Notes: generated from the letters alone by a model not told the origin. DNA of 64,000 nt from Rhizaria sp. SCN 62-66 (GCA_001724265.1 MEDY01000036.1:1-64000), one strand, 5' to 3'; shown: positions 7,093 through 59,700, numbered from the stretch's first letter. Made by a program: numbers and translations.

Positions 7093-10000
7093 TTAGTACG
7101 CGGCCTCCGAGTTCTCCAGCTGCTTGGCTACAAAGGCGGTCTGCGCGATGAGCTAGCGCTGCAGCTCGGGTTCAATGCGCCCGCGCCACTTCTGGATCTT
7201 GGCGTGTGTAAGGTAGCACGGCGCGGTGTGCGCCGTGGTCATGAGCGCGTCGCAGTCGATGGCGCGCGCCGGGAGCGCGGAGAGGAAGACGAAGACGTCC
7301 CCGGGCGTGGAGAGCGCGAGCACGTCGGGCGTGGCCAGGTGCAGCAGTGCTAGCGCGGTGCGGAAGAGCACGGCTGTGTTGCCCTCGGCCAGCATGACGT
7401 CCCAGACGCGGAAGGCCGACTCAGGGGGCAGGATGTCAACGTAGAGACACAGGAACCACGGCAGGCAGATGACGGCGATGTCGACGTTGAGCGCGCGGAG
7501 GTGATCCGCCAGCACCGGGAGCCGCTTGCCGACGTAGACCGAGAGCACGCGCATGTCGGTGCGCACGTCAAGCATCGACGGCGAGTAGTAGTCTGCAGGG
7601 ACGACCGTGGACAACAGCTGGTCAAGCATCCAGAAGGCGCGCTCCTCGGAGTAGAAGAGCAGCAGCGCGGCGGTGATGATGTTCATGCTCTGGCAGTAGC
7701 CGATGCGCGGGTGCTTAAACGAGAACACGGCCAGCACGTTGGTCAGCATCGCCATCCCGTGGTCGGAGCGGAACAGCGGTCGGTGCTGCATCGTGCGCTT
7801 GACGTCCTTCTCGATTTCCTTCTGCGACTTGGTGGGGTGAAACGTGAGCTGCCAGAGACACGTCTCGTAGTAGTCGCTGTGCTCCTGCCGCAGCACGGCC
7901 GCGTCGGCCAGCGCCTCCCACGCCAGCGGGCGCGCCGCGACGGGGATGCCGCGCTGCACGAGCCGCAGCCCCTTCGTGGAGCGCAGGCGGGCCGCGAAAG
8001 ACGCCAGCGCGCGCTCGTCGGGCTCGGAGTCGGAGTTTGCGGCCGCGGCGGGCACGCCGTGGAGCATCTGCCCGCGCGCACCCCAGTCCGCGGGCAACCC
8101 GCAGCCGGCGGCGAGGTCCGCCCACGCGGGCTGCACGGCCAGGCGCGACATGGCGTAGTCTTCGCGCCAGGTCGAGTACTGGATCGGCGATACGTCGCTG
8201 CCGAGCGAGGTCCGCGGCAGCGAGACGCTGCCGCGGCCGCCCAGCTCGGGCGGCATCGACAGCGAGCCCCCACTGGCGATGAGCGCCGTGCTGATGTTGG
8301 CCTCGCTCGCGCTGGCGTTGCCAGAGCTGGAGTGGGAGGGCGAGAGAGTGGTAGGACTCACGGCGGCCGGGGCTGACGACGGCGGCGGCGGCGGGCGCGA
8401 CGGCATCACCGAGTACGCCCGCTTCTGCTGCTGCTGCTGCTGACTGGTCTGAGGCGGCGGCGGCGGCGGTGTGACCGTGGACATGAGGCGCTGCGGGGGC
8501 GCAGACGGTGGCGGCGGCCGCTGCGGCGGGGGCTGCCGCGGCAACGCATTGTCACTTGCACCGGCGCTGGCACTGGCGTTGGCGTTGGCGGCGGCAGCGG
8601 CGGCGGCGATGGCTGCGGCCGACGGCGGCGGCGGGGGCAGGACCGACCCGCGGTGCTGCATTTGCTGCTGACTGGGGGAGGCCGCTACAGAGGGGCCAGT
8701 GCTCGCGGTGCCGTTGGCGCCAGTGAGGACAGACGGGGGGCGGTGCGCGGGCGGCGGGGGCCGGGGGGACACCGCGCCGCTGGCGCTGGCGTTGGTGGGG
8801 CTTAAGACGCTGCCGCGGGAGGCGAGGTGTGGCGGCGGCGGCGGCGGCGGCACGCTCGAGCCCGCACTGGCGCCCGCGCCGGCGCTGGGCGGGGGGAAGA
8901 AGGACGCGGCACCGCTGGCGCTGCTCGCGGCCGCGTTGGTGCTTGCGGCGGCGTTGTTCGAGGGCGAGACGTAGGAGGCCGGGGACAGGGCCATGTGGGG
9001 CGGTGGCGCCAGCGAGGCGTGCGCCGTGGGCAGCGCGGTCGGCGAGCCTGCGATGTTCGCAATGAAAATAAATGCAGAGAAATATGCTCAGTGAGATTGA
9101 TCCAAGATATCATTGAATGATACGAATGAAAAACAAATTAGAAAACATGAACAACAAAAACACACACACGGTAATTACAGGATGATGGCGACATTCACGT
9201 CTAAAAAGTAAGATGAAAGAATTATATGTTGTGTCGATATCGTACCTGGAGGGGACCAGTCGCGGCCGCCATAGTAGTCGTCGTCGTCGTCATCCTCGTC
9301 GTCGTCGTCGCTGCCGCCAGCGCCGTTGCCGCCTCTGCCGTCCTCGGCATCGCCGTTGACTGACGACGCGCGGGTGAAGGTATACGAAGCATCATAGGGC
9401 AGAAACGACTCCGGGAGACCGCCGTCGCCGTCGTCGTCGTCGAAGCCGCCGTCCTCGTCCTCGTCCTCCTCCTGCTCCGGCGCAGCGCCGGCGGCGTCGC
9501 CGCTGTCCGTCTGCTGCGACGAGCTCGCGGTGGCAGCGCTGGCGCCGGGCGGGGGCGCGAAGGGGGGCGGCGGGGGACGCGCGCTGGCGCCGCTGCTGCC
9601 GCCAGCCGAGGGAGCGGGGGGCGAGAAGGGCGGCGGGGGCAGGCCGAGCGTGGGGACCGTCACGCTGCCGCGAGGCACCGCGCTTGCGCTCACAGGCGCC
9701 GTCGCCGTCGCCGTCGTGCCCGCGCTTGCGTTGGCGTCGGTGGGGCTGGCGTCCTGGGCGGCGTCGTCAGCAAAGCGCACGACCTTCTTGCCTCTGCGGC
9801 TGCCGGTGCGGCCCGCGAGCGAGCCGAACACGCCCGTGCCTAACCGCGCGTACGGCGCCGCGGCGGGCTGCTGCTGTTGCTGCTGTTCCGACTGAGCATG
9901 TTGTGGCTGGGATTGGGCAGCTGATAAAGGGGGCGGCGCGGGAGCGCTCTTGCCTGCACCCACACTGGTACTGGTACTGGCACTGACGCTGCTCAAGCTC

Positions 10001-10755
10001 GACGCGGGCATGCCATACTTGGCCACCTGCGACTGCGACGCGGCTGCCGACGAAGAGGACGATGCAGAGGACGGGGAGGATGTTGCGAATCGCGTGATGA
10101 GCGCGGCGACGCACACGGAGCCCGGCACAGGGGGCCGGACGGGGGCGGGGGGCCGGGCGCTGCCGGGCGCGTACGCCGGCGTCGGCGGCGGCGGAATCGG
10201 CACCGCTGGCGCCACGGGCGGCCGCGGGCCCACTGAGCTCGCAGTCGTGAAGCTAGAGCTATAGCTAGAGTTGGCACTGGGACCCTTGGACAAACAGTTG
10301 TTACTGCTGCTGCTGCTGCCATTGCTGTTGGTGGCGAACGGGCGCGGAGCCGGCGCCGCGGGGGCCGCCGGCTGCGCGCCGTTGTAACTCACAGTGCTCG
10401 CGGCCGCAGCGCTGGAGCTCGCGGCAGCCGGGGACGGGGGCAGCGGCGCGGCGAGGCGCGGGGCCGCGCGCGCGGGCCCCGACGGCAGCGGCACCTGCGG
10501 CGGGTGACCCCGGCCGCTGCCCCCCGCGGCGGCCGCGGCGGCGGGCGCGTACGAGAGCCCGTAGTCGTAGTCGCTCACGGGGGCGCGCAGCAGCGTGCGG
10601 TGGCGCGCGGCCGAGGGCACGACGCGCCCGTTCACGGCGTTGGCGCCAGAGCTAGAGCTGGCGTTGACGCTGGCACCGGAGCTGGCGCCGGGAGGGAGGT
10701 TAGCACCGGCGCCGCTGCTGTTGGTGCTGAGCTGAGACCGGTTAACATTGTTGTT

Positions 10756-10786
<31 letters not shown>

Positions 10787-11682
10787 CCAGCCGCGGTGGA
10801 ATTAGTGCTGAGCGTCGAGCCCGCCCCCGCAGACGCAGAGCCGGCGCCTCGCTGCGACGCGGCGCTGGCGGCGGCGACGGTCTGCTGCTGCGAGGGCGTC
10901 CACGCCGTGCGCGCACCGGTTGTGAAATGCTTGAGACAGAGCCCCGCGGTGGCGGCGCGCAGCGCGCAGCCGACCGAGGCGCAGCGCTGCGCCGCCGCCG
11001 CGGGTGACGGAGCGGCCGAGGCGGGCGCGGGCAGCGGCGACCGCGGGGCAGTGCCCGCCGCGCCCGTGCGGAAGACCGCGTTGCCCCCGCTCCCGCTCGC
11101 GCTAGCACCCGCACTGGCGCTTGCGCTGCTCGAGGCGTTGGGGGTGACTGTGACGGTAACGGTGCCGCCGCTGCCGAAGCGCGAGGGCGCCGGCTTGGAC
11201 GGCGACGGCGGCGGCCCCGCGGCGGCGGACGCGCTCGTGCCAAAGTTCGAGTTCGCGGAGCCCGCGCCGGAGCCGGAGCCCGAGGCGGAGGCGGGGTTGG
11301 TGGGCAGGGCCGAGTCGGGGCGCGGGCGGCGCGGCGCCTCAGAGGCCGGGGGCTGGGCCTTGGCGCCAGCGCCGCCGCCTGCACCCGCGCCGACGGCCGT
11401 ACTGGGGTTCGCGTGCGTGGCAAAGGTGGACGAGTGGCCCGGCGCCGCGCTGGAGGGAGACGCCGCGTGCGCAGGGGACGCGGCCGAGGAGGCAGTGTTG
11501 TTGCGAGGGGAGAAGGCGTCTGTGTGGCGGAAGTTTGTGAACGTGGGGGACATGGTGGACTCCTGGCGACGAATGTCGCGGATGCGGAGGTTCCGGAGGT
11601 CCGAGAGAGGTTGGCCAGAATTCTTGGCGTTGGCAGCGGCGGCCGCAGCTTCGAAGATGTTAATGCGGGTGTGAAGGTCCAT
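7093..11682 (-). CDS. TBC-domain Rab GTPase-activating protein with long Pro/Ala/Ser-rich N-terminus; exons 11682-9246 and 9047-7093 (~1463 aa if the TAG at 7153-7155 is sense; ends at 7153 under the standard code)
   Basis: Catalytic motifs EIEKDVKRT (IxxDxxR) and GYCQSMN (YxQ), plus EERAFWML, WFLCLY and FRVWDVML. Phase-1 intron GTACGA...CAG at 9245-9048. Confidence 0.9.
7153..7155 (-). other. In-frame TAG, candidate sense (Gln) codon, near the C-terminus of the TBC gene
   Basis: Followed by 19 codons, 17 of them ending in G/C (LIAQTAFVAKQLENSEAAY), then TAA at 7095-7093. Confidence 0.6.
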
Positions 11683-18016: not shown

Positions 18017-18501
18017 GCATGCTTATGCTCGCTAACGTCACCTTACAATTGAAATACCGATTGCTATCTATATATTCATTAATCGAGTCGAGCTACGCAC
18101 ACATTTACGTGACAGGCCGCAAATTTAGCTACATGAGCGTTGCGTCTTAGGGTCGTGTCGACTGTTATGTAAGTTTTTGAGTCATAAAACACTATGTACA
18201 AGTGTTAATACACAAATTCTCTATCACTTCCTAGAGTTGGCCATGAAAAGCTGTATATCCTCCTACAAACATGTGTTTGATGGAATTTAACCAGTGACGG
18301 GCTTAACACTATCAATCGCGCCCAGCGACTGCTATGATGGCCGGAATTTTCGCAGTAAATCCCGAACTCCCCAGTCGTTATTATAAAATGAATCTAGCTG
18401 CAAAGGAGAGAAATCTTTATATTTTGTATGCATTTCTTTTTATATTTCAAACCACGCTGAATGCCATTCTCTTTGGAATCTTTTGTTGCGTAGCTGCCAG
18501 C

Positions 18502-21500
18502 ATGGATCGCGGATCCTTCAATGGTCCTCCGCGACCAGGTCCTGCAGTGCCCCGGCTTTCCCTTTCCCCATCAGACTCTTCCCGCAGAGCTGCCACACCA
18601 GCTCACACCGTTGTGCCGAGCGTCTTTGCCCGTCCAGAAGACGATGCACTCGTTCAGCATCTCACTGCAGCATCAGTCGCCGACACCAGCAACTCTCGTC
18701 ACCCCTTGGCGAGTGCTGGCGTACCTTCGAGGACTCCAAATAGCGTCCCAGCTCCGCTCAGTGCTGTGACGCCCGCCCGACGTAACCCTGACCACGCGCC
18801 CCAGCTCCCGCGGCAGGCAGGACGTCACCCGCCGCGTCCCGCCGCGGTCCCCGCCTCTGCGAGCACGGTCAACGTCGACAGCCTCGGACTGCACTTGTCA
18901 CGCAATAACAGCGAGAGCTTCAGCGTGATCAACAACCACTCTGGTGCTTTTGCTGTTTGTGGTGAAGCCGGTGATGCTGCTGAGGACGATGTAACGCCAC
19001 AGCAACACAAGCGCCCGCGACTGGCAGCGCCACCGCTGCTGCAGCGGCTGCCGGCGCAGCACCCGCTACCTGCGCGCGCTCATGCACCGCAGGCGTCCAA
19101 TGTCCACGTGCAGACAACAACACTGTTGCCACAGCAGCAGCACAGGGCCGCAACGCCTGACTCAGCGGTGACGCCTGTGGCTGTCACGCCTGGCATCGTA
19201 AACACTCCCGTCGCACCATCTCGACTTGCGACGAGAGAGGCCACGCTTTTGCCTGTGCGAAAGTCTCGTGCAAGCCAGTTGGCGAGCGCGACAGGTAGCA
19301 GTGCGGCAGGCAACAGCTTGGGGGAGCCCGTTCAAGGTAGTACGAACAATATCTACAGCAGTCACTTTGACGATATCAGTGACGGCTACGATGGAGGTAT
19401 TGACTATGCGAGCATTGCTCTTGCTGCGTCCAATGTATCCAGCGCCCATACCAGCATTAGCACCCGCACCGAAAGCGCGAATATCAATCACATGAACAAT
19501 CGCCATATGTTTATGACCCCTGTTGACACTTCTTCAGGCACTACTGCTCCGCACAAGCAGCATGTTGCTAATCGTCACTCGACTGCTGTGAACGTAGTGG
19601 TGAGTGATATCGACGATGAGTATGAGTATTACGACTCGAATACTCATGCCGCCGGCGGCCGCAACAACATCACAGGCAAGAACGCGCAACACCAGAACGT
19701 ACGTGCATATGGTGGTGCTCGTGCTGCGCGCGCGCCGCCACCGATGCCGAGTATCTCTCCACTGCCGCCTAATGTGAACAACACCGGCGTGGGCATGAAC
19801 AACTCGAATACCCAGACGGAAAACGCGTATCTGCCGACGACCAATCCTGTCAACACTGGATCAAGTGTCAGTCAAGGTGTGCATGCTAGTGGCAGCGAGT
19901 ATTCGCCGTTCTATCAGACTCCATCAGCGCCAGTGCAACACCAGCACTACAACAAACTTCAGCCGCAGCGGAGACACATGCCACAACATGGTATTAACAA
20001 CAGCGACTCGACTAGCGATATGGCGACCCCTGGTAGCGCTACTTCTGGCTCCGTTGCTCGTTGTGCAAAGACTTCCACGCCAAGTGTTGGTAAGCACACA
20101 CATGCTTCTGTGCAGCATGGACACCTTCAACATCAACACCAGCCTCTTCAGCAGCAACAGCGCCGTAAGCCTCCAGTTGCCCCTGTTCCGGCTCTCTCTC
20201 CCGCACTGCCGGTTGCAAAACAGATTGGCCTAGTGAGTTCAAGTGCTGGTAGTGTAGGTGCCGATGCTGCTGGTGCGCTCGATGACCCTCTTACTATGGC
20301 GATGGCAGCAATCAAGAACTTTCCCGTTGCGGACTCTGGTGCTCGCGATGCCGCGCAAGCGCAGAACCGCAATCGGGCACCCAAGAGCAAGACTATGAAG
20401 CATGGCAACATTGCTAGCGAGTCCGACAACGCCTATGACCAGCATGCAGACAACCCTGACTTCAATGAGAATATTAACGACGTCGACGACGGCCATCTGC
20501 AGCAACAACACCAACAATACGATGCTCGTGCCAGTGATGCCGCTGCAACTAATTCCGACAACATTGGATGGGGAAACAACACTCTGACAGGTGTCAGTGA
20601 CGACGACGGGATCTCAGTGCTCTCGCTTCCGCGCCTGATGGCGTCCTTCTGTTCAGTCACCATGACGCCGTTGCTCCCACTAACGCACTCCATCACTGTC
20701 ACGGCGCGCAACAATATCGGCAACACCAGCAACCGTGATCCGAGTGCAGCCCTGGGCGCGAGCACAGCAATCAGCGACGCCGGGAGCTCTGCTGTGAGCG
20801 ATCGTGGGAATCTAGCGTCAACTGGTCGTGGCGGTCATGAGCATTTGCTGACTCTGAACAATGAAGATCTTGATTCTGCCGTGTTATCCTTTGCACCACC
20901 TTCTGGCCCTCAGATCCAACCCTACCGGCGCACAACATCCAAAACGAATACTTTTGCAACTGTATTTTCGAACGCCGTTGTTGGAGCAATTGCTGCAACC
21001 TGGGCTAACATGAGCACACGTGCTGATGACGCCGTTCCTGTTAGCTTGGCCGATCGTGCTCGTGCTGCTGCGAATGTTAGTATTCTTAATAATATGCTAT
21101 GCGAGTCTGTCACCCCAGTCCCCTTCATCTCCGCGCTGCCCCCTATCCCCAACGGCTTAACCTACCACGCGTCCCTCATGCCGACGGTAATCCCTCCTCC
21201 CGTTCCCGTCACTGCTATGAGGCGGCGCCACTTACGCGAGCCTGCACTAGTGCCCTTGCACTCGGACATGACTCGCGACGGCAGTGACATCGACAACAAT
21301 AGTGGCAGTGGTAGGGATACTGGTGTAGGTGCCTTGGCACTCGGAGGCCGACTGTGGGCATCGTCCGCCAATCCCATTCTGTTTCTCACCACCGCTATCA
21401 ACAATCACATGAATAACCATACTTTGTGGACCGAAATCGTCAACGGCCACAGTGCAGGCAGCCGGAACAACAACGGTGTGAAGCAGGCACGATTGATGCA

Positions 21501-25830: not shown

Positions 25831-25878
25831 GGAACTGCATACGCACACGATTCCGGAACTGCATACGCACACGATTCC
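25831..25878. repeat. Perfect 24-bp tandem duplication (GGAACTGCATACGCACACGATTCC x2)
   Basis: Copies at 25831-25854 and 25855-25878, directly adjacent with no spacer. Confidence 0.9.
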
Positions 25879-26115
25879 AAAGCAGTGAATATGACTGGAA
25901 CAGAGGGAAGAACTAGAGAACGGAAGAGGCAGAGAAAAAAACATGTACAGAAAACATAGCGAAAACGCAAAGATAAGGGTGTGCGTTGGCAATCACATTC
26001 ACACAAGACAATCTGAACCGTAAGCAATATCGAAAGGCAGCGTCTTAAATCGCTGTGCAAAAGGATATTAGCAAAATATCCTTAAGTTGCTGGAGGCGAG
26101 AAAAGAAAAAGCCAT

Positions 26116-44121: not shown

Positions 44122-45228
44122 TCAGTTCGCGCCCTTGCTGCCGGCCTCCTTCATGAGAATGTTGAGCTTGCGGTCCATGCTAGCCGCCGAGCCCAGCGGT
44201 TTGCCGCCCGCCGCGCCGTACTTAGCCATGCTGCCGCCCTCGACCGTCGCGGCCGCGCCCCCCGCGCCCGCCACGCCGCGCTGCGTGCGGGAGCCGCGCA
44301 CGTTGCCAGTCCCCGCCGCACCCGCAGCGGTCGCAGTCGCGGAGCCGTCCGCAGCAGTAGCCGCGGCGCCCTCGGCGGCCTCGGCGGCCGCGAGTTCGGC
44401 CGCGGCCTGTGCGTGCGCCGACGCGGGCGCGGGCTTGCGGGGCGCCTTGGGCGCAACGGGGTACGAGATGCCGAAGTCGGCGGCGTCGTCGTCGTACTCG
44501 TAGCCGTCGTCGTCGTCGTCGCCGTCGCCGTGGCCGTTCTCGCCCGCCTCGGCCTTGGACACCACGCGGTAGTCGTGCCAGTCGAGCATGTTTCCTTTGT
44601 TGGCCTCGCGCAGCAGGTGCCCCGCGTCGCGGTTCGTCAGCAGCCCACGTTCCCAGTTGCGCGTGATCGTGTTGCGGAACGACAGAGACGCGGAGCACGT
44701 CTTAAGGAGGTTCTTGACCTCCTAAAAACGGATACCAAAAAGAAACACAAACATGATTGGAAAAATCACATCAAGAGGAGCGAATGAAGAGATGAGACAT
44801 ACAATTACAACAGTATACAGATTATATACACCAAAAAGACACAACTTAATATCCAGGCACTGATAAATATCGCGGTGTAAAAAGGAAGGACCGCGTACCT
44901 GGTCGGTGACAGGGGGCGGGCGCTTGGCGGCGTCGCAGGGCTTGAGGCACTTAGCGCACGCGCCACGGTCCTTGGAGCACTTGTCACAGATAATGTGGTA
45001 TGCGCGCTTGATCGACGGCTCGTGGCACGCGACGCAGCGGTTGACTTCGTTGAGCGGCTTGTACTTGCGGTACGTCTTCTTGTACTCGATCTGCTTCTCA
45101 CAACGTTCGCACAAGTTCGTGTGATGGATCGACATGATGCGGGCTGTGAGGCGCGAGTTGGGGTTGTGCTCGAACTTATAGACGTTCATGTGGGTCGGCT
45201 GACCCGGTTTGTTACCACGCTTGCTCAT
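44122..45228 (-). CDS. C9orf85/DUF2039-like Cys-rich protein, 309 aa; exons 45228-44899 and 44721-44122
   Basis: HMNVYKFEHN, CERCEKQIEYKKTYRKYKPL and CVAC...KRAYHIICDKC...CAKC. Phase-0 GTACGC...TAG intron; TGA stop. Confidence 0.88.
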
Positions 45229-45776
45229 GGCGCGCTGGGCAGCGGCGCGGTGCGGGGATGGGTGCGGGGAGACGGAGTAGAGGTGAGGGAAAGCAAAGAA
45301 GCCAGGTGCATGAGGTGAGGGACGGCTTCTGAGTGGAGCATGAAATTAAGAACTACTACAATAATGCATAAAAAGTCCACACATGACGCTATACCGCATT
45401 CTGACGACGAGAATATAAAGAAAAACTGATTTCCCGAACTTCCTCACCAAGTCCCGCACCACCAAGCCTCGGCTTTTTCGGAACCTGCAGACAGCCAACC
45501 ACCAACCAACGACTCGTTGACGCTTGAACGAAACTGACATAGCCCAACTTTGACCACGCGTAGAATGATACCTGTTCGATAAAGCGGCACGTAGCACTTT
45601 GTTCAGGAGTATAATTGCAATGATTTCTATTTGTGCGTAATTAAACCTCTCCAAAAAGCCATTATGACTCATAACAGCCTTCTTGTTTCACCCACCTTTC
45701 CCCGATTACAGCTTTCCACCAGCCTTCCCTCCTTGAAGCCCGAACCACGCACAACAGCAGCACTCGCAGCGTTAGC

Positions 45777-47730
45777 ATGGGCAAGGGTGGCGCCCAACTG
45801 GGCAAGCCCGTCAAGGGCAAGAGCAAGGAGCGTAAGAAGGACCGCAAGGCCAAGACGGGCGGCGACGCGGGGCTCGCGGACGACATCAAGCTGCTCGAAG
45901 AGTACGAGCGCCTCAACAAGCTCGCCGACGCGCAGCGCCTGCGCCTCAAGCGGCTACAACAGCAGGAGATGTACAACACGAAGATCAACCAGAACATTCT
46001 GCTCAACGTGCACCGTAAGGCTATGCGCGCGGAGAAGCTCGACTCGCTGCGCAAGGAGATCGAGATCCTCGCGCAGAACTTCGAGCGCGAGGTTGACCGC
46101 AAGGACGCGATCCTGCAGATGCTCACTAAGGACATTGCACAGGCCGAGGAACAGTACGACACTGCGCGCCGCACGCACCTTATCAAGGTCCAGCAGTTCA
46201 TCACGCTCCACGAGCAAAAGCTCCAGGTATGTTCAGATGTGAAGCAACAGAACAAGAGCATTTCAGCTGTACAGACGAGCGAAATGCATCAATGTTGCTG
46301 TCTTTTGTGTTATAATTTGTATTTCTTCACTTCACAAAATTGTTTATTAAAGAATAATGCGCTCGTCTTGCATAATTCTCAATCTATCATGGTTGCCCGT
46401 ATTCTCTCTTTTTCTTATCTCTCTCACTTGCTATGCTCTGCCATGTTTTGCTTTGTTTTGTTGTGCTTTCCAGGCCGTGAACGCGGACTTTGAGCGGTAC
46501 GTCAAGGCGCTCAAGACCGAGTTCCACGCCGAGCTGGAGGACCTCCGCACGCAGCACAACCGCGAGACACGCGAGCTGGCCTCGGTCATCGCGCAGGTCG
46601 AGGCGCTAGACAACGCGCAGACGTCTGCGACCAAGAGCGCGCAGGAGGCCGAGCGCGAGCGCGTGCGTAACGCGAACCTGGAGTCGATTAACGAGCTGCG
46701 CATCTCGCTGGAGAACCGCATCGAGGACCTGGAGAAGCAGTTCGACGACGCCCACAATATCTACACGGACCACACGTATCAGAAGCACCGGCTGTTCCGC
46801 GAGCTGCAGCGCTCGGATCGGCGGCTGACGTTGCGCGTGCAGGCGCGCCGGCGCCGGTTGGACCGCCTGCAGGACGAGCTGCAGGCGTGGCGGCGCAAGC
46901 TGGCTTTCTCCGAGGCCGAAAACGAGCGCACGCAGACGGACCTCGCCGCGCAGCGCGACCTGGTCAAGTCGCAGTGCGCGGCGCTCAAGGCGCGCACGCA
47001 GGCGATGCGCGCGGGCGAGGCGAAGCGGCTCACGGAGCTGTCGCTCATGTCGCGCGACGCCGCGAAGCTGAACAAGGAGAAGCTCGAGTTCGCTGAGAGT
47101 CTGCTGCAGCTGGCCGAGCTGGCGCGCAAGCTCGAGACGGAGAAGGAGAAGGTCATGCCCGTGGACCCGCACGCCACGGCCGGCGCGGCGGCGCTGCTGC
47201 AGGGCCGCACGACGGCTGAGGGTGTGCTCGAGGCGACGCTGCAGCAGCAGCAGCTGCAGGGCACCACGCTGCCCGCGCACATGACCGGCGTGTACCCAGG
47301 CAGCAACGCTGCCGCCAGCAACGCGGCCGCCGCGGCCGCGGGCGGCGACGAGGCCGGCGGCGCGGCGCGACTGAGTCTGGGCTACGGCGTGGGCGCGGGC
47401 GCGGACGCCGAGGGCGTGCGGCGGCTTATCGACGGCCAGGACTGGAGCTCGCTGGACGTCTTCTACGCCAAGTACAACAAGGTGATGCTGGACAAGCTCG
47501 CGATCGCGCAGGAGAAGGCGCGCCTGAAGCAGGAGAATGGCGACCTGCGCGCGATCCTGAAGCAGTACCTGGACGGCATCGCCGTCAACAGCGACACGGT
47601 CGGCGAGACGAACCCGCTGCTGATCGTCAACGGGCGCGTGAACCTCATGGGTGCCACGCAAAAGAGCACCAAGCGGCCCAACGTCGTCATTGAGAGCGGG
47701 CAGGTCATGCATCAGTACCAGCACACGTAA
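45777..47730 (+). CDS. DRC2: Dynein regulatory complex subunit 2 (CCDC65), 568 aa; exons 45777-46226 and 46474-47730
   Basis: LRKEIEILAQNFEREVDRKDAILQML.KDI..AEEQY and YNKVMLDKLAI..EK..L..EN..LR.ILKQYLDGIAV...NPLLIVN. Phase-0 GTATGT...CAG intron; TAA stop. Confidence 0.9.
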
Positions 47731-48025
47731 AGACACAGTTCGTGCGCTAGGCTTTGCTATCTCTTGTATTTTGTCTGTTTTGTTGTTGAATAGTTTGTAC
47801 CGTTTTTATATGCTACTTTAGGTCGAGAAATAGAATACAATTTTGAATATCTCCTCACGTTTGATTGAAAGAAGCTGTACGTTTTAGTCATGTGTTGATG
47901 CAAGATAGGAATCGGAGCGTTGTACTGCTTGGTTTAGATAGTCTTCATATAAAAATCACTAAAAAAAAGTATATAAAATAGGTTGGTTGTTTAATTCTTT
48001 AACTTGTTTATACTATATGACTTCC

Positions 48026-51000
48026 TCACTCATCAGCAGCGGCATTAGTGTCGTGGGTAACGTAAGCGTCGTTGCTCTCGGCCGCACCATCAAACACAGC
48101 GTCAGCCTCGACATCAGCCTCAGCCTCAGCCTCAGCCTCAGCGCCTGCGTCAGCGTCAGCCTCTGCGGCAGTGGCAGTCTCAGGTTCAGGCGCAGCCTCA
48201 ATCTCAGTCGCAACAGCAGAAGCAGCGGCAGCCTCGGGTTCAGTGCTCACCTCGGCAGCACCAGTGCTCTTGCCGGCAATGCACCGGTCCCCAGTGTTGC
48301 TATTACTGTCGTTCTCAGTGTTGGTGTCGGCGTCCGCGTCCGTGGCCGTGTCGGCCGGGATGCCGTTGAGCTCGTCGTCGTCGATCACGTTGCCGAACAC
48401 GTCATATACCTTGCCGTCCGCGCGGCGCAACTTGAAGAACTCCACCTCCTCCTGCTGCCTGATCGTCCGGGCCTCGGCGGTGACGTCGGCGCCGTTGGAA
48501 CCCGCGGCGGCGATCGCCGCGGGGCTGGGGTGGTGGACGCCCGCGGGGCAGCGCGCGATGTGGCGCCAGAAGAGCGTCTCGGCCTGCGCGGCCACGTCCG
48601 CGGCGTCGGCCTCCCACATCCACGGGTCCGGCACGCACACCAGGCCCTCGACCGGGACCGTGCGCAGAGACGACGACAACAGCGGCGACAACGACGAGAC
48701 CGCAAGGGCAGCCTTCGCATCAGCAGCCGCGGTCGCAGCGTCAGCGTCAGTGCAGGGGACGGTGAGGGCGGTTGCGAGCTCACCGGTGCTGCTCACGGTC
48801 ACGCGCTGGGTGAAAAAGGCCACATACGCGGCCTTGGGCTTCTCGCTCTTGCCCCCAGCCGCAGTCGCAGTGTTGGACTGGGAGAAGTGGGCAGGGGCGG
48901 TGACAGCGCTGGTGTCGAAGAGCCGACTAACGAGGGGGCCCAGCGCGTCCTCAGCACTGGGGGTAAAAACAGACACTGCATTAGCCACGGGATTCGCGGC
49001 TGCACTGTCACTCGCGGTGGCAGTGGTCGTGGTCGTCAGTAAAGGGAGACTAATGTTGGCGACGCGGAAGCCGGTGGGGCAGACACCGACGTTCGAGTCC
49101 AGGAAAAGAACGTGCGCGCTCGGCTTGAACTCGCTGTCGCTGACAGAGACGCTCTTGCGATCGCTGTTGCTGTCGCTGTCGGCGCTGTAAGTGAACGCGT
49201 CGGGGTGGACGACGAGGCGCGACAGCCCCGGGATTTGCGTGCTCCCGGAAGCACTTAGATCGTGTAAGGGGGTCGTCGCCTCAGCGATGACGATGGCGCG
49301 CGCGATAAGCGCGGTGCGCAAGGTGCAGGCGCCGCCGTCAGCCGCCGACTCAGACTCGGCCACGTCAGCAGCCGCACTCGCTCTCGCACTTGCGGCCACA
49401 GTCGCGGGCGCGGTCGCGGTCCCAGTCCCAGTCCCAGTCGTCACAGCACTCGCGCTCGCACTCGCACTTGAGCCGGACTCGTCCTGCTTTGCAGCAACAG
49501 CGCTTTCGCTGCCATGAGCATTTGCATCAGTGTTTGCGTCCGTATCAGTGCTATTGCAAGCAGCAGCGGCGGTGATGGCCGCGATGGCCGCGAGCGCCTG
49601 AGTGCGAGCCTCGGTCAGGCTGAGCGCGCGGGCGCTGTGGGGGACCGCCGCCAAGCCGCCGACAGCACCACACGTACCATCACGTGTACCCTCACGTGTA
49701 CCACAGGTGGTGCTAGGGAGGTGCATCTTGTCGACGTACACGCGCTTGGCGGTGATATACTGGCCTGCCGGGGTCAACACACCGGTGATAACGAGCCCAG
49801 GATTGTTCCCACTAGCAGCCGCAGCAGCAGAGGTGGTATTAGCGTCCGCGATGCTGTCAGTAAAGACAAAGCCGACTGGGGCGTGCTGGAGCATGCAGAT
49901 GGTGCCAAAAACGGACGTCAATCTAAGCATGTTATCAAACAAGAAGACAACACAAAAAAGAGTCACATGAGCAAGCAACATTATAAACCTGATGTAAAAT
50001 TTCCACCGAATAATAAAAATATAAAAAATTGAAATCTTGACGACACATAAACAAGCATGAACTGCACGAATTCAATCCAAAGGCGGACACTGTTGGTCGA
50101 TATAACGACGACGTACCGCGCGAACGCCTGCGCCAGTTCCGAGATGCCGTACGACGGGTACAGGTGCGCCCCTTTCTGGCCAAAGCGACCGAGCGAGGTC
50201 ATGATGCCCTTGGTGCGGCGCGCAGCGTCCTTGGTCAGCAGCTCACCCACAGACGCATCATTAGCAGCGGAAATCGCAGCAGCAGTTGCAGTCGCAGGAG
50301 ACTTGGAGGCCAGGAGGACGTTGGCGGCGGCAGCAGCGGCGGCAGCAACCGTGGGCTCGCCCATCCCGTGGCCCAGCGCGTAGGCAAACATAGCGCGCGC
50401 CAGCGCGGGGGCCTTGGCGTCGGCCAGCAGCGCGGACAGGGGGCGGGAGGCGAAGGCGGCGTACTGGGCCACGTGCGCCGCTGTCAGATTATCCAGGAAT
50501 AGAAACAAAGATAGCAAGAATATCGATGGAATAAGGTGAACCGATGAAATAATATAGAAAAATGAGTATCAAAAAAACGATAAGGTGTTTTGTTTCAACT
50601 AGGCATGAGATAGGACCTCAAAGTGCAATTTTAGTGTTTTGCAAAAGGATATTGAAGAAGGATTAGCGCAATGTGACGTACGCTTCGTCTGCGGGTTGCG
50701 CGGGTCGTGGTTCAGCACGTGCGCCAGCGTCGTCAGCGAGTGCTTCGCGATTAGCGACAGGCGCTTCTCGGCGAAGATGTCGCCCTTGGAGCACGGGGTG
50801 CGCCAGTAGAAAGCGTCCAATGCCACGCCCGTTGGCGTCGCAAACCTCACACTCCCACTCGCAGCGGCAGTCGTAATCGAGCTGGAGCTGATGTTGTTGG
50901 TGCTGTTATTATTGGCGGGGACGGGGGGCTGCTTGGCGTCGAGCGCGGCCTGCGAGAGCGCCATGTAAGTGTCCTCGACTCCCTTGAACTCCAAGTAACT

Positions 51001-51870
51001 GGCCGTGTCAGTGCGGACGAGGATGTCGACGAGTGCGCAGCGCGAAAGCACAAGCGCCGGAGACAGGTCAAGGCTAAAGCGGAACCGCTGCTTGAGCATG
51101 TCGGCGGACGGCGGAGGCAGCGACGACGCAGTTGTCACGGTCGCGGTCGTCGTCGCAGTCGCCGCAGTCGTCGCATCAGAATTAGAGCTTGAGCTGGAGC
51201 TTGAACCAGAGTTGTTATTGGCAAGCAGGTCAGCTGCAGAAACAGCAGGGGCATCCACAGCCGTGCTGTCACTACTTCTCGCAGTCACAGCGTCAGCAGG
51301 AGCAGCACCAGCAGCAGGAGCAGCAGCAGCAGCAGCAGTGACTGCTGGGACAGAGGGGGCCCAGACCGATGCGCCGGCGAAGGGGAACGCAGCGGCGTTG
51401 TCGGGGTCTGAGAGCAGCGCCCTAAGCGAAGTCGTGTACTCTGAGTCCAGCGGCGATTGCGACCCCGCGCCGCGGCCCCCGAGCCCACAGCTGCCACCGC
51501 TGGAGTCACCGGCGTCAGATGGGTCCGAAGCACTGAGGAAGGCGGAGTTGGCGAACGGGAAGACAGTGGCGCCCGCGGCAAATGCGGGGTCGCTGTGAGT
51601 CGCGCGCCACTTGGCCACGGCCGCGGAGAATGCCGCCGCGCCCGAGCCACCCGTGCTCGCAGTGTTTGTCGCAGCGTCCGCGGTGGCCGCGAGGAGGCCG
51701 TGCAGCTCGTGCAGCGGCAGGGAGGCCTGGGCGCCACCGTAGTTGGTCAAGGTGTCCATGATGACGACTTTGCGGCCGATGCGCGCAAGTGACGCCGCAA
51801 GCATCAGCTGCGGAAGGCTTGTGCCGATGAAGATGGCGTCGTAGTCCGTCGAGTCGAGCGTGTACGACAT
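48026..51870 (-). CDS. CHM: Rab escort protein (REP/CHM, GDI superfamily), ~1149 aa; exons 51870-50682, 50480-50117, 49922-48026
   Basis: YDAIFIGTSLPQLMLAASLARIGRKVV..D...YGG, RFSLDLSP..VLSR..LVDILV...SYLEFK, PCSKGDIF and LGRFG...LYPSYGISELAQAFARLTSVFG. Both introns are phase-compatible; TGA stop. Confidence 0.88.
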
Positions 51871-52274
51871 CGCGGGCGACTGGGCCGAGAGTGCGAGGAT
51901 GCGTTTGTGGTCAGCGGGAGTAGGGCGCGGATATGACGGGGAAGATGTTGAGATACAGGCAAAAATAATATAATATAATAGCAAATGCAACATATAAATG
52001 TTGAATACAGCACTTAAACTCCAACCTGACGACGGGAATGCAGTTTGCCTATAGATTTTTAGAAGCGACGTGGACCTTCTGTCCAACGTCGTTGCCAAGA
52101 CCTGTGGCGGCCGAAGGGAGCGACGTGATTTTTCGGTGACAGCATCAGTCTCGTGGCCGGTCTCACACTCGTTGCAGCGCTCTGTAACTCTTCACACAGG
52201 TAGTGTGCTTTAATTTCTGCTTATTCGTTTATTACGCGCGCACCCACGTGTAATCTCGTCTCTCTGCGACCACC

Positions 52275-53243
52275 ATGTCGATCAACGAACAGCCCCTTCT
52301 GTTCCTCCTCAACGCCAAGGGCAAGGAGACCGTGAATGACATCTTCGTCACTGCCTTCCGCTTCCGCCGTGACACCATTCCCGAGCGTGTACGTTCTATT
52401 AACTTCTGCACTCATTCCTGCCATATTACACTCATATCTCCGCTCTCTGCATCCCGCGCACTCGACACTCCCGCAAATCTCACCCACTCACTTCACTTCA
52501 TTTATCTTGCGCTGTCTCTCGCCCTACCTAACTCATCCCTCTTACGCACACGCACAGAAGCTTGCCGAGTGGTCCACTGAGCTGGAGGTCTCGGTCGCGG
52601 ACGCCGCCGTGCTGGCCGGCAGCGTGCAGGCGCTGGTTCGCTCCTGTCTCTACTCCAGCTCGCTGCCATCGCAGGTCCTCTCGGAGGGCTTCCACCCGCA
52701 GCTCGCCGCGCTCATGAACAAGGTCCTCAAGGCGCACGCCGAGGAGTGGCGCATGGCCGTCACCATGAACAAGGTATCGCCACCGCAGTTGCTCGAGTTC
52801 AACTACCGCATCGACACCAAGGCCAGCTCGGACGCGCTCGCCAAGATGTCGTCCTCGTCGCTGCTGCTCGCGCTTAAGATCCAGGTACGCCGCCATATGG
52901 TCTCTGCACAGCTCTGCCGCAGGATATCTATTTGCCATAGCTTAACACTGTCATATAGGTATATAATTGCATCTAGTCCTACGATGTTCTTGCTTCGTGC
53001 TGTTCCAGTCTACTTCAAACTTACATCTGAATCATCTTTTTTGTCATCGATTGCTTGCTCCCGCCTTTCTGTGGCTCTGGGTCGTCGCCGTCGCTGGTGC
53101 TGTGCACACTATAGGACCAGCCGACGCAGGTGGGAGTGATGCCGGGCGTTAAGGACGTGCAGCTGGAGCTCAGCACGCAGGAGCTGGCCACCATGCTCGA
53201 CGGACTGGGCAAGATCAAGGACCAGCTCGAGTCCATCAAGTAA
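52275..53243 (+). CDS. COMMD9: COMM domain-containing protein 9, 189 aa; exons 52275-52388, 52558-52884, 53115-53243
   Basis: FHPQLAALM.KVL, PQLLEFNYRIDTKASSDALAKM and the C-terminus LELSTQELATMLDGLGKIKDQLESIK. Two phase-0 GTACG introns; TAA stop. Confidence 0.9.
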
Positions 53244-53708
53244 GGCGGACCAACGCGAGCTAGCGTTGCGAGAGTAACGCTCTACAAAGCAACGAAAACT
53301 ACAGACAAAGTCGCCGACAAAAAGTCTCTGTATGGAAGAGCACTTTTTGGGAGGATATGTTTCACTGTACACTCCAGACTGAAGAGAATTGACAAACAAT
53401 TTGCGTGTCTTCTCAATTTAATACAAAACAATTATCATAGTATTTCAAAAATGGTTACATCTCACAAGAACTGAAAAGTTGCTTGGTCGTCTCAACAACT
53501 GTCGACTCACGGTGATGTCATTAAAAATTTTTAGTGTACACGTAAGAATGTAAAAAATTGTGTTTTAAACAAAACCCATAGAAAAAGAGGAGAAATGCAA
53601 AGATTTATTGTATAAACATAGATAAATAACACATAACTCACTATATAACTCATAGCGTTCCGAGAAGTCAATTTGTAACTTTCGACAAGTCTCTCACACA
53701 GTTTAAAC

Positions 53709-56700
53709 TCAATCGACGGGGAAAAAGCTCTCGTCAAGCGGCGCCCCTGCCCTGATTGACTCCACCAACCAGTTGAAATTGACGACATGAATCCCGTGTT
53801 TCCGCGCGAATGCCACTTTATCGCCCTCGCCCGTCATAGCGATGACGTGTGTGACGTCCGTGGTCAGTGTGTCGCTGTACGCGGCTCGGCGCAGGCTGTT
53901 AGCCATCACCACGAGCTCGTAGATGGCGGCCTTGACGTCCTGCGTGTGCTGAGTCGCGCAGACCACAATGCCCTTGGGCCGCGTCACCACGGGTGCAAAC
54001 GGCACGAAGACGTTGTCGTGCAGCGCGTACACGTCGATGACTGCGGCGGCGGACTCACGGTCGCGGCGCGCTTGCTCCTGCTGTTGATGCTGCAGTGACA
54101 GCGCCCCTGGCTCAGTCTCAGTCGCAGCCACACCCGCTGTCTCCGCGGCAGTGTTGGCTGCTGATACTGCCGTTCCAGTTTGCGCTCGTACTGCAGAGGC
54201 AAGCACGGCGACGGGAACCTTAACGACCGCGGCGGCAGCGTGGGCCGTCGCGCTCGCGTTGTGCGGCTCCAGCATGCAGAACCGCTGGGCCACGTGCAGC
54301 GGCGAAAACGACGCGAGCACGCACCGCTCCCGCGTCTCCGGCTGCAGGTCAGGCAGGGTGATGTTGTTGACTTGCGGTGAAGAAGAGCCCGATCCCGCGA
54401 GTGCCCATATATTCTCCGCGGACGCAGCACCAGTGTTCGCACTCGCGGTTGTGGTGGCTGCAGCTGCTGCTGCAGCAGCAGCGGCCGCGCGGGCGGCTGC
54501 GCGGGGCGCAAGGACGCCGCCGGCGGCGGCAACGGCAGCTGCGGTCGGTAAGGCAACTGCAGCAGGCGCGGCCATCATCGTCGCCTTCACGGTAGTGCTG
54601 CCGTTGTCAGTATTGGCGCTGCTGTTGTCAGCGTAAGGGGCAGCGCGTGCGCGCAAACGCGGCGAATGTGCCCTTTGTTGTTGTTGCTGTTGTTGTTGTG
54701 ACTGCGTCTGTGACTGCTGGGACAGCGCGTTGTTGCTGTTGGCCGCCGGCGTCGCCGACGGCGCCAGAGTGTCGCCGCCCTGCGACTGCGACAGCGGGGT
54801 CGGCAGCGACGTGATCAGGTGCGCCTGCATCAGTCCGCGCATGTGCGCGCGCAGAGGGCCCGGCGTGGGCAGCGGAGGCGCCAGGAACACGCTGTGGCTG
54901 CCTTGGCTGATGCTGTAGCGCCACCGCGTCGGGTCAGTCGGCGACGGCTGCAGCGAGCGCAGGTAGCGAGTCAGAGAGACAGGCGGCTGCGAGCGCTCGC
55001 CTGCACGGCCCGACTTGCCCCCGCTCTTGCCCTTCGCAGATGTAGCCGCAGCTGAGCTTGAACTCGAGTCCGCGCTATGTTGCTGCTGCTGTTCATTTTG
55101 GCTTTGTAGTTGTTGTTGCTTGAGAAGAGCGTTGTACCTCGCGACCACAAACGCGTTCGGCGCGACCGTGCCGATCGAGGTGGGCTGCGATAAGTAAAGC
55201 CGCCGGGGGTCGATGAGCTCGCCCGCCGCGAGACAGGCGGTGACCCAGCGAGGGCGCACCAAGCACAGCGGCCACGTGGGGAACGAACGGAGGTCGATCG
55301 GCGTGTAACTTGCCATCGTTGCAGCGGCAGCAATGTCACTGCTGTCACTCATATTCTTGGAACTGTTGTTGCTGCTGCTGCTCCGAGTGCCGTTGCTGTT
55401 GTCAGGATGAAACGTAACGAGTGGGTCGTACCACAGTGAGTCGTCATTCGCATCTTCAAGAACGACGAACTGACCGTGAGCAGGAGAGGCGGGGTGACCA
55501 CGGCCAAAGCCAGACTGTGCACCTCCAACAGCACCCATGACATGGGTGATCTTCGCGTTCGTGCCGTCGCTGTCGCTGCCACTGCTCAAAGCCGCCGGAG
55601 CAGGGATACGGCCAATGTTGTTGCGATTCGCAGCAACGTCACTGCCCCACATCGTTTGCACCGACGGTCCAGTTTTGGTTCCGCCGGTTCTCTTCGCCCC
55701 CGAAGCAACACTAATGCCGGCAGCACTGATCGCGTCCGCAGCTGTAGCAACAGCAGCGTTCCGGGCCGCAATGTTCGCATCAGCAGCAACCGCCGCGGCA
55801 GCAGCCGCCGCCGCAGCAGCGCTACTGCCTCGCTTACTGCTACTAGAGGCCTTGCTCGAGCTTGAGTTAGCGCTGGTGCTCGCGTTGGCCAGCGGGGGCA
55901 CCGTGTTGGCGCCGGCGCCAGCCCACGCTGCGCGCGCGCCCCAGCCGCCGCCCTCCGGCGGCGCGATGGCGGCGAAGGGCAGTGCGTCGCCGTCGAGCGC
56001 GTGCGTGATTACAAAGTGCACGCCGCTCCGCATCACCGACGGATGCGTGTACACGCTATACGAGGCGGGCACTGTAGTCAACCCAGTGTCTTTTGCCGTA
56101 GCCTTTGCACTTGCACTTGAGCTAGGGCTCGAGCTAGAGCTGGAGTTTGAGCCTGATTTCTCGTCATCATTGTTAGACGACTTGTCACGCTTTGAGCTTG
56201 AACTATCACTCTGACGGCTAGACTTTGATTTGTTGCTCGCCTTTGATGCAGTTGCAGCAGCCGCAGCAGCTTTCTTGGTGGCTGTCGCAGCCATCCTGTG
56301 GTCAATGCCGACCGCGACCGCGGTTTTGACCTGGCCCTGTTGCAGCTGCGGCACCGCGTCGCTGCCGAGTAGAGCAGTGCCGCCGTGCTCCGTGATGAGC
56401 TGCAGCATAGCGACGCTCTCAGCAAAGTCGAGGCAGATGACAAACACGACGCCGTGGAACAGAGTCGATTTGAGAGCAGGCTGGCCGCCAGTGCTGTTTC
56501 GCGCGTTCGTGCTGTTGCGGTTCGCTCCAGTGCGGACAGGGATTGCGGTCATCAGGCCCGTCCCAGCGTCCTCCTGCTGCCGCAACGGCCCTTTGCCGGC
56601 ATCAACATCGGTGGTGGTTAGGGCGGCCTTGGCCTTAAGAAGGAGGGAGCCGTAGGTCGTGGCAGGCAGCGTCGGCGCGGCCGCCGCCACGGACGATACG

Positions 56701-59700
56701 ATGAGCACTGTTGGCGGTTCACTGGTGCTGCGAGAGTCCTTATTCTGGTGATTAAGCTGCTGAGAGTTCTGAGTGAACGACTGTGCGTTGACATTGCGGG
56801 CAAACTTGTCCGTGTTGGGGCTTGTGCTGGTGCCAGCGGAGGACGAGGACGAGATGGTGATTGCCGATTGAGAGCGAGGCAGTCCGAAGCTGTTCGCGTT
56901 GTCGTTGATGTTGTTGTTTTTTGTCGCACCGTTGTTGCCAAAGATGGCGTCGTATTCATCTTCGATTCCGTCATTCATAGCCATGTTGGAGCGAACAGTG
57001 TTTGTCTTCGACTCGTCGATTGAGTTTTTGCTGCCACCACCATCACCTTGCTATTGCTGTATGGTCGCGGTTTGCGTCTCTCCATTGGCCAACGGAGCTT
57101 GCCTTGTTCCATCAAAGCCATGCGTATGCTCCAGAGCGTGACTGTGACCGTGAGCGGACGAGATGTGACTGCTTGAATGACTCTGCGCAGTGCTAAAACT
57201 GTTAGATTCAAGACTGGCGTGACTATGCAAGCTCGACCCACCCTCGTAACCACCATAGATCACACTACCAGCCGCGCTCCCAGCACTGTTGCCTGTAGGC
57301 ACACCGTTACGACTGGCTTGGCTATTGCCAGCGTTGTTGTGAGGACTCACGTTGGCGGAGACAGTGACGATGCTGCTGCTGGGGGAGAAGGCACCGCTGA
57401 GGTCGCCTTGCGTCGGAGTCACCATCGGCGCTGGCAGCGATACGAGGCCTGTCGGCGCAAAGTCGGACACGAGAGGCTTTAAGGCGGGCTCCCATCCAGT
57501 GCCAACACTCACAGTGCTGCTCCGAATCCCAGAGTTACTGGGATTCCGGCCAAAAGACTGACTCTGCCCCTGCCCCTGACATTGATCGGCAGCAATAGAG
57601 CTTGCACTTGTGTTCATGCGAATTGCGGGATTTGACTTGTTGAAGTCGGCAGTTGCAGATTGATTGTCGTCCTTCAATGATTCGTAATCGTCTGTATCTT
57701 GCATACTCGCAACCTTGCTCTCCACACCTGCGTGAGAAGTGGACACGGGCCGTTCATGTTCTTGTTTGACTTCCTGTTGCAACTGTTGTTGTTGCTGCGC
57801 GTGACTTGCCAGCCGCTGGCGCAGCGGCAGAGTGTCGAGATCAACATCATCGAAGTTAATGCTACCGCTGCCATTTACATTGACGTCGCCAGCACTTTGA
57901 ACGGCAGCAGCAGTAGCCACTGCAGGAGTCTTACTGGAGGTCAACACAGCCTCGCTATCACGTGCACCCCGAGTGATAGCGGCGGCGCCCGCCATCGCCG
58001 TCACCGCCTGCGTCCGCAGCTTCTCATTGGCAAGGAACGGGTCCGTGGGGGGCCTCCCGCCCAGCGCCAGCGCCGCCCACAGCCAGCCCACGGTCACCAC
58101 GGGCACGCGCGCACACAGCGCGTGCGCTACGGCGGCCGCGGTCGTCGTACGGACCACGACCGAGGGCGCGGGCGGCGCCGCGGCGGTCGCGACGGTGGTG
58201 TGGGTGTGTTTAGCAAGCAAGCCAAAATACGGGATTGGACGGTCACCAAGTGACGCCGCCGCACTGCTCGCATTCGCGTTATTGCTGCTGTTGATCGCGT
58301 TGCGCGTGTTGATGTTCGCGTTTGCAGCAGTGCTCGCGTGGACGCTGGCGGCGCCGCCGCTGTCACCCGCCGCCGTGGCCGCAGCGACGAGCCCAGCGAT
58401 GGACGGGTCGTCCGCCAGCAGCAGCCGCTCCAGCCACGCCAGCAGCGCGGCGTAGTCGGGCACGATAAAAACCGACGAGTGCGGCGGCAGTGTGAGCTGC
58501 GTCTGGTGAAACACGCCCGCCTGGCGCAGCAGAGTGACGATCTGCGTCGTGACAAGCGGGGAGAAGCCGGGACCGAGCACCGGCAGCAGAGGTCCGTCCG
58601 CCGCAGCGGCAGCAGCGGAGGCCGGCAGTAAAGCGGTGAACAGAGTCAGACCGCGGCGGGTGAGGGGGCGCGCCTCGGTCAGAAGCTCCGTGGTGAGCGT
58701 GGCGGGGAGAGACAGCTTTGGCAGTGGGAGCGCCGATGCTGCGGAGCTCCCTATAACCGCGTCGCCAGAGTGAGAAGACGAGCTCGTGTAGCCGCTGTTA
58801 TTCGTGCTAATATTATTCGTAAAAAATAAGATGCAGAGCTCATGCGAGATGATCGTTTGCGCCAAGAGTGACAGCAACGAAGTTGTGCAGTGGGCTGTCA
58901 CGAGCGCAGACTCAGTATCCTTATTGCTATTCAGGCTTGCAGACACGCAATTAGTGTCGCCGCGAGTTCCGGTAGTGCGAGCATGCGTTCGCAGACTTGC
59001 GACACTTGAGGCCAACACAGGGGCGAGAAATGCGGTGGCGTCGCGCGAGACGGACAGCGGCCGCAGTGAGGCAGTCAGGGGTGCAGCGGCGGCGGCGGCG
59101 AGTGCGCTTGTGGCGAGGATGCGCTTCAGCTCGGCCGGCATAGATGGCGGCGGGAAAAAGCGACTCGTGACAGTGAGCAGTGGGGCGTTCGCAGCAGCGC
59201 TAGCAGTAGAGCTATAGCTGGAGTTGGTTGAACCGTAGCTGTTGGCGTTGGAGCCCAAACTTGCAGCGTTGCCATATGATCTAGGGCTCGAGCTCCTGCT
59301 GCGTGAGAAAACGCTGTAGACGGTTGCACATGTATACGTGTACGATGTCAGCACCTTGACAGCAGACGCGCGCGCGCTCTCAACAAGAGAGTAAACACGG
59401 TTTAGCCTCTCACTAGCGCTAAGTTCACTTTCACACTTCAACTTGTTCCGTGTGTTCTTCGAGCTCGAGGTAGACGTATTAAGGGCAGTGATTGTGGTGG
59501 TTACAGCAGCCCAGAGACTGTGTGTGTACGCGCGCACAACATCCCCTGCATCAATCACACTGGCGCTGGCACTTGCAGCCGACAAAGCAGTGCGGCGCGA
59601 TGCAAGATCCCCCGCCAGAGCGAGCAAACTGCGCACAGCCTCGGTTTCCTCGCCGGCCAGCTGCGCGCCGCCGATCGCGGTCACGCTCGCGACGCTTGCG

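Follow-up and report, generated by a model that had tools for sequence, protein, structure and literature searches.

Three protein-coding genes in the 64,000-nucleotide (nt) stretch MEDY01000036.1:1-64000 of Rhizaria sp. SCN 62-66 (GCA_001724265.1; hereafter the window, with positions counted from its first letter) contain an in-frame TAG. The best explanation for these triplets is probably that the organism reads UAG as a sense codon and still uses UAA and UGA to terminate. The three triplets are located at 7153-7155, 26870-26872 and 57051-57053 (sites 1, 2 and 3, respectively), all on the minus strand, within a TBC/RabGAP gene and two genes termed here gene B and gene C, and the coordinates, strand and frame that a first-pass annotation had assigned to them were verified. 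The strong evidence for sense decoding is the positions of the TAGs, rather than the fact that all three are TAG.

The window DNA is nuclear and eukaryotic, with long reading frames rich in G or C at third codon positions (GC3) interleaved with AT-rich spacers. Gene models were derived from Pfam matches and from reading of the sequence, and comprised 16 genes, approximately 16,900 codons and 13 introns. All eight multi-exon models spliced in frame. The introns were 117-285 nt long with a GC content of 0.31-0.50; their donors conformed to GTA[ACT]G in 13 out of 13 cases and their acceptors were YAG, five of them TAG. Across the 16 spliced models, the exonic in-frame stops were three TAG, no TAA and no TGA, and no frameshift was required, in agreement with the first-pass annotation.

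Site 2 is the strongest of the three. Here, the TAG is codon 113 of gene B (26116-27208, minus strand; 297 codons), which is composed of an exon at 27208-26385, an intron at 26384-26186 and a last exon at 26185-26116, and ends in TAA. An exhaustive search among 1.84 billion representative proteins retrieved 16 homologues, and an ungapped residue was found opposite the TAG in all 11 that were aligned. Residues M104 and A111, invariant in an MPSTxAAA motif, are encoded 9 and 2 codons upstream of the TAG, while the invariant G184, A185, C188, D189 and C191 lie downstream of it. Further, three homologues begin at residue M104, which indicates that the conserved core starts ahead of the TAG, and the first ATG past the TAG is 57 codons downstream, so that a restart there would lose conserved sequence. 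As judged from these alignments, site 2 is an in-frame UAG within conserved coding sequence over which the homologues are colinear, and gene B is intact apart from its TAG.

The last exon of gene B was recognized through the homologues as a 23-codon hydrophobic tail ending in TAA. A TGA at 26339 was ruled out as the end of the gene, the frame being spliced over 26384-26186 to the final exon. A 173-amino-acid (aa) protein encoded on a 1,315-base Logan contig (P0159) contains the predicted exon-exon junction together with the C-terminal tail, as in homologue P0022, which shows that the gene is transcribed and its intron removed as predicted. The first codon of P0159 is a GTG located past the TAG, with no extension upstream, which is consistent with the presence of the TAG in the RNA. 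No Pfam family matched gene B. Members of its family (P0022-P0036; 16 members) share an N-terminal MPSTMAAA, a GAHQCDxCG...DLCxxC cysteine motif that looks ZZ-like by eye, and a hydrophobic anchor at the C-terminus. A tandem duplication of approximately 24 nt is present at about 25830-25880, in the spacer that follows gene B.

The TAG of site 3 is codon 2316 of gene C (53709-63998, minus strand), counted within an open frame of at least 3,429 codons that continues past the end of the window and is terminated by TGA at 53711-53709. This TAG is the sole stop within the frame, which encodes one BRCT domain near its N-terminus and one at its C-terminus. A codon model was trained on gene C with the 200 codons on either side of the TAG excluded. 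The 100 in-frame codons upstream and downstream of the TAG scored +28.5 and +58.4, respectively, compared to a mean of 35.4 (sd 12.6) for gene-wide windows, while out of frame the same flanks scored from -28 to -75. A score of +10.0 was obtained for the 22 codons preceding the next ATG. When applied to the 13 introns, the model yielded a mean of -0.32 per codon and a maximum of -0.02. The in-frame coding scores at both flanks therefore place the site-3 TAG in continuous coding sequence, rather than in an intron or in intergenic DNA. Beyond its TAG, toward the 3' end, gene C has a GC3 of about 0.7.

Site 1 is codon 1444 of the 1,463-codon TBC/RabGAP gene (7093-11682, minus strand), with exons at 11682-9246 and 9047-7093 separated by an intron at 9245-9048. 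The N-terminal exon comprises 812 low-complexity codons and the second exon encodes the TBC domain (PF00566, E 6.7e-47). The two exons join in frame, with the TAG as the sole internal stop. This TAG is followed by a tail of 19 codons (7093-7152) that ends in TAA at 7095-7093, directly after which the sequence turns AT-rich. This tail has a GC3 of 0.89 and a codon log-odds score of +13.0; in the controls, the 19 in-frame codons past each of 14 other stops scored from -39.5 to +7.9, all below the tail. A BLASTP alignment with the best homologue, P0003 (39% identity), continues through the tail, although this is weak support given that the region is poorly conserved; the residue opposite the TAG in this single aligned homologue is E. 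Sites 1 and 3 lie in non-conserved regions, and the case for them rests on codon statistics.

We also examined how genes in the window end. Among 14 securely placed terminators, eight were TAA, six were TGA and none was TAG, which bears out the initial observation that no other gene ends in TAG. TAA terminates a partial gene at 1-133, DIM1, a 2,220-codon gene, gene B, and the aquaporin, FPL-domain, DRC2 and COMM genes; TGA terminates the HAT1, mitochondrial carrier, HMG-box, DUF2039 and REP/GDI genes and gene C. A 15th terminator, at 28884-28886, is probably TAA. TAG is not scarce in general, accounting for 24% of the stop-type triplets found in spacers and for 16% of those in coding-sequence off-frames. 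Four further TAGs seen in raw open reading frames (ORFs), at 911-909, 5645-5647, 44724-44722 and 50601-50599, were dismissed because they lie in AT-rich introns, two of them being the acceptor TAG itself.

As a control for TAA being a stop, the DIM1 terminator (573-575, minus strand) was compared with related sequences. The spliced DIM1 model encodes 142 aa and ends in ...YKY followed by TAA at a conserved C-terminus; most of the DIM1 homologues listed also have 142 aa. A metagenome scan with DIM1 produced four short loci, of which L001 is from the same organism within the window, and L002, from a relative with 85% identity, has the same end; the scan added no genes beyond those of the window. 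Similarly, the TAA of gene B sits at the C-terminus matching those of P0022 and P0159, and the TGA of gene C is 14 codons past the C-terminal BRCT domain. UAA and UGA thus terminate at conserved C-termini.

A first alternative is that the gene models are at fault, with the TAGs lying in unrecognized in-frame introns or at the ends of genes that abut another gene in the same frame. An intron of this kind does exist in the window: that of the DUF2039 gene (44722-44898, minus strand; 177 nt) is in frame and its sole stop is its own acceptor TAG. Since it mimics an in-frame TAG at the ORF level, and TAG acceptors are used in the proportion given above, the intron explanation was tested explicitly for the three sites. 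The 700 nt that precede site 1 contain no GTA[ACT]G[TC] donor. For sites 2 and 3, the upstream sequence has one strict-donor match each, both defining out-of-frame "introns" with a GC content of 0.55-0.68, and the one at site 2 would remove a conserved motif. Looser, GTGAGT-type donors precede site 3 by 297 and 459 nt, distances that would keep the frame; the corresponding introns were excluded by the coding scores of the flanks, which are unlike those of introns. Overall, the would-be introns have a GC content of 0.53-0.68, compared to 0.31-0.50 in the annotated ones, the looser candidates lack a GTA[ACT]G donor, and by eye no pyrimidine tract precedes the would-be acceptor at site 3. With regard to abutting genes, the homologues are colinear across the site-2 TAG, and the stop-free "spacer" at site 3 would measure 66 nt, compared to 318 nt for the shortest of the measured gaps between tandem genes, that separating the HMG-box gene from the next one on its strand; spacers elsewhere are AT-rich. 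A gene-model artefact is therefore highly improbable.

An error at the sequence level, either in assembly or sequencing or through U-to-C editing of the mRNA, is equally improbable. DNA matching the window was found in runs labelled bioreactor, wastewater, activated-sludge or microbial-fuel-cell metagenome (11 rows from six studies), and at least half of the sampled words of the window were present in four rows from three studies. In a comparison of 44000-63999 with runs X3-X6 at a likeness setting of 85, only long pieces with 0-2 differences were used, as GC-rich low-complexity matches drew noise at a low likeness setting; the listed X4 pieces do not bridge site 3. A contig of 2,195 bases from X3, a run of an independent study, spans 56525-58719 with no differences, including the site-3 TAG. 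For the other two sites, fragments predicted with the standard code end exactly at the TAG: P0160 (613 aa, three contigs) and P0001 (one contig) at site 1, and P0158 (112 aa, four contigs) and P0023 (two contigs) at site 2. The four and six contigs involved come from ENA and Logan assemblies and the longest of them measure 122,175, 122,306 and 187,150 bases, although the samples may not all be independent. An exact 48-mer across site 2 had no matches in genome contigs and none in viral contigs. The presence of the TAG in the DNA is thus confirmed at site 3, and at sites 1 and 2 it is indicated indirectly by the fragments that end there. As for editing, the GTG start of P0159 fits an unedited TAG in the RNA, without being proof of it. 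Consequently, two of the alternatives raised in the first-pass annotation, assembly error and splicing-out, are largely excluded by the X3 contig, the multi-contig fragments, the donor scan and the coding scores.

Several results weigh against a sense reading of UAG. TAG accounts for only three of the 550 CAG, CAA and TAG codons (0.5%), while in the comparable first-position pair TTG/CTG the T-starting codon reaches 18%. The first-pass annotation had attributed this rarity to a preference for CAG at high GC3, an account that fails because TAG too ends in G. No tRNA gene was found by ARAGORN in the 64-kb window. If TAG made up 15-25% of stops, the finding of no TAG among 14 terminators would have a P of 0.02-0.10, and the sample is small. 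Random single-base nonsense changes in these genes would give TAG in approximately 63% of cases, with a P of approximately 0.25 for three out of three, so that the all-TAG pattern is weak evidence. Site 1 by itself could be an ordinary TAG stop. Among the differences listed between the window and X4 in gene C, two were synonymous and six non-synonymous, and purifying selection on this gene is therefore not demonstrable. In the poly-A RNA run X6, depth was 0.18 in the bin 56673-57339 and no RNA contig covered site 3. Finally, the sampled populations are near-identical (relative to the window, one difference in 20 kb in X3 and seven in about 9 kb of clean contig sequence in X4), which means that recurrence of the TAGs is no proof of their age.

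Some of these points would be expected under a standard code, with TAGs that arose as nonsense mutations, be they recent, strain-specific or heterozygous loss-of-function alleles or part of decaying genes, whose products are non-functional or tolerated. The 63% expectation, the extreme rarity of TAG in frame and the ratio of strain differences in gene C all fit such mutations, and in near-clonal populations a few recent ones would recur in every sample. This explanation nevertheless requires that two or three of 16 neighbouring genes were struck, with no frameshift, TAA or TGA elsewhere in the coding sequence. It is also at odds with gene B, which is transcribed and spliced and has kept its whole conserved architecture, and it leaves both the coding-like tail of site 1 and the lack of TAG terminators unexplained. 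The single difference in 20 kb of X3 contigs also points to very low visible heterozygosity, a soft argument given that contigs can drop minor alleles. On balance, we regard nonsense mutation as unlikely.

The sequence context of the TAGs bears on how they might be decoded. The base following the triplet, at 7152, 26869 and 57050, is C, T and C, respectively. After 16 terminators, by contrast, it is G in 11 cases, A in four and T in one, the latter being the uncertain terminator, which amounts to a purine in 15 out of 16. A pyrimidine after all three TAGs has a P of approximately 0.04 given the composition of first codon positions (35% pyrimidine). If real, this bias may imply that termination still competes at UAG. 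No common motif was observed in the downstream codons (CTC ATC, TTC ATT and CAA GGT), the pyrimidine at +4 being the sole shared feature, and 103-nt stretches starting from each TAG showed no unusual RNA structure in comparison with shuffled sequences (z = +1.47, -0.09 and +0.90).

A pyrimidine at +4 is a weak termination context and would also be expected if the code were standard, with UAG ending most genes elsewhere, and particular UAGs were subject to leaky or programmed readthrough or to suppression, near-cognate tRNAs inserting Gln, Tyr or Lys. Site 1, moreover, resembles a classical short C-terminal extension. Sites 2 and 3, however, are located mid-gene, at codons 113 (out of 297) and 2316 (out of at least 3,429), respectively, and partial readthrough at such positions would waste most of the product. 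The unremarkable downstream structure and the lack of a shared downstream motif also argue against programmed readthrough, and TAG terminates no gene within the window. We therefore consider readthrough under a standard code improbable.

The amino acid inserted at UAG was assessed from the surroundings of the three sites. In the column opposite the site-2 TAG, the 11 homologues have K, E, A, R, R, N, V, T, K, T and K, which suggests a polar, variable surface position. By BLOSUM-style substitution scores, this column disfavors Leu, Trp and Tyr, is neutral on Ser and fits Gln, Lys and Glu without distinction. Site 3 lies in a glutamine run, the sequence CAG-CAA-TAG-CAA at 57053-57051 being as first reported, and this context suggests an ancestral CAG, although a nonsense mutation would leave the same pattern. 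Taken together, the E at site 1, the mixed column at site 2 and the Q run at site 3 are compatible with Gln without singling it out. The proposal of a UAG-only reassignment to Gln is thus upheld in part: UAG is probably sense, with UAA and UGA as stops, while the mixed site-2 column leaves Gln as one candidate among others.

On this reading, the organism, an uncultured, intron-bearing, GC3-rich eukaryote present in bioreactor and wastewater metagenomes, would have ribosomes that insert an amino acid at UAG, or at any rate at these three sites, Gln being the most economical guess. By analogy with other UAG-only codes (PMC5304391), decoding would be carried out by a tRNA with a CUA anticodon, which would pair with UAG and not with UAA, and eRF1 may also recognize UAG more weakly. 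Such a tRNA would most simply have descended from tRNA-Gln(CUG). With only three TAGs in approximately 16,900 codons, the change is read as young or inefficient: UAG would no longer serve as a stop, and sense UAGs would so far have accumulated in small number. We tentatively put forward, as a possibility that is rather doubtful in its full form, an early or inefficient reassignment in a lineage without a sequenced close relative, in which UAG is gone as a terminator, makes up about 1 in 180 Gln-type codons and is tolerated only in a weak (+4 pyrimidine) context.

UAG-only changes are already documented, and the present one, if true, would be a further case with unusually low UAG usage. UAG alone has been reassigned to Gln in the fornicate Iotanema spirale, in Protocruzia tuzeti and in some phyllopharyngean ciliates (Panek et al. 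2017, PMC5304391; McGowan et al. 2024, PMC11687900), and the table with TAG as Gln is named genetic code 15 (PMC9523058). In Iotanema, approximately 8% of Gln codons are UAG (204 sites distributed over 126 genes), and 22 of 28 hyperconserved columns are Gln; 104 genes end in UAA and 15 in UGA, and UAG is absent from bona fide ends (PMC5304391). As in Iotanema, in-frame UAGs occur here in conserved genes and only UAA and UGA terminate (8 TAA and 6 TGA). In contrast to its approximately 8%, our 0.5% corresponds to three sites with no column that names the amino acid, a difference to be added to the points that weigh against sense decoding.

In the rhizarian exLh (Sainouroidea), UAG is read as Leu; the 384 in-frame UAGs are spread over 71 genes and mostly fall at conserved Leu positions, and the terminators are 56 UAA and 15 UGA (PMC5304391). 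UAG alone has also been described as Leu in a ciliate (PMC5304391/PMC11687900), and as Ser in Scotinosphaera (PMC11687900). The window resembles exLh in that UAG alone is changed and both UAA and UGA terminate; it differs from it in that the single informative column contains K, E, A, R, N, V and T instead of conserved Leu.

Both UAA and UAG encode Gln in many ciliates, hexamitin diplomonads, Streblomastix, ulvophytes and Amoeboaphelidium protococcarum (PMC11687900, PMC5304391). These codes share with the window a stop-to-sense change of UAG, plausibly to Gln; unlike in them, TAA clearly terminates here, as DIM1 and gene B end where their homologues end. DIM1 of A. protococcarum shares 73% identity with that of the window and is no closer than the DIM1 of other named eukaryotes. 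In the ambiguous, context-dependent codes of Condylostoma, Parduczia, karyorelictids and Blastocrithidia, the ambiguous codons occur often within coding sequence and serve as gene ends as well. The pyrimidine after all three TAGs and the purine after 15 out of 16 terminators would be in line with such a code if UAG still competes with termination, whereas in the window in-frame UAG is very rare and no gene terminates with it. Overall, the pattern matches that used to establish the known UAG-only cases, on a much smaller sample.

With respect to the identity of the organism, metagenomic relatives reach 85-86% identity in the DIM1 search, while the named eukaryotes among the matches listed, Amoeboaphelidium included, mostly share 69-75%. 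By its genome style, with introns of 117-285 nt and GC3-rich exons, the organism is not a ciliate. None of the results obtained here speaks for a fornicate origin.

Other features of the window were also recorded. Two apparent ORF pairs turned out to be one spliced gene each: the ORF at 9175-11682 with the RabGAP ORF, and that at 1747-3672 with the HAT1 exons. The latter gene (1747-6347) joins a 636-codon exon to the HAT1 exons, for a total of 1,328 codons ending in TGA, and a search with the HAT1 exon as query returned no match. A search with DRC2 confirmed only its family membership. Two classes of codon usage occur side by side: most genes have a GC3 of 0.8-0.9, while it is 0.53 in the 2,220-codon gene (18334-24996) and in a coiled-coil-like gene (27852-28886). 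The coiled-coil-like and aquaporin genes are convergent, with a (GTGC)n microsatellite between them at 29078-29108. In the poly-A RNA run X6, one contig (50020-50334) extends approximately 95 nt, unspliced, into the second intron of the REP/GDI gene, which indicates that this library also contains unspliced RNA or DNA.

A practical consequence concerns public databases, where gene calling with the standard code splits these genes, as seen for gene B (P0158, P0023 and P0021) and for the RabGAP gene (P0001 and P0160). In the literature covered, with subscription journals and supplements outside its scope, no wastewater or activated-sludge eukaryote with a UAG-only code was described. According to PMC11687900 and PMC5304391, UAA and UAG are nearly always reassigned jointly, and few nuclear lineages split them. 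If true, the reassignment proposed here would be another independent case, and thus a data point on how the coupling between UAA and UAG is broken, from a free-living, GC-rich, intron-bearing wastewater eukaryote. Its very low UAG usage would be unusually informative on the first steps of reassignment. Should the early-stage reading be true, the organism would represent, caught in nature, the codon-capture or ambiguous-intermediate step postulated by models of code change.

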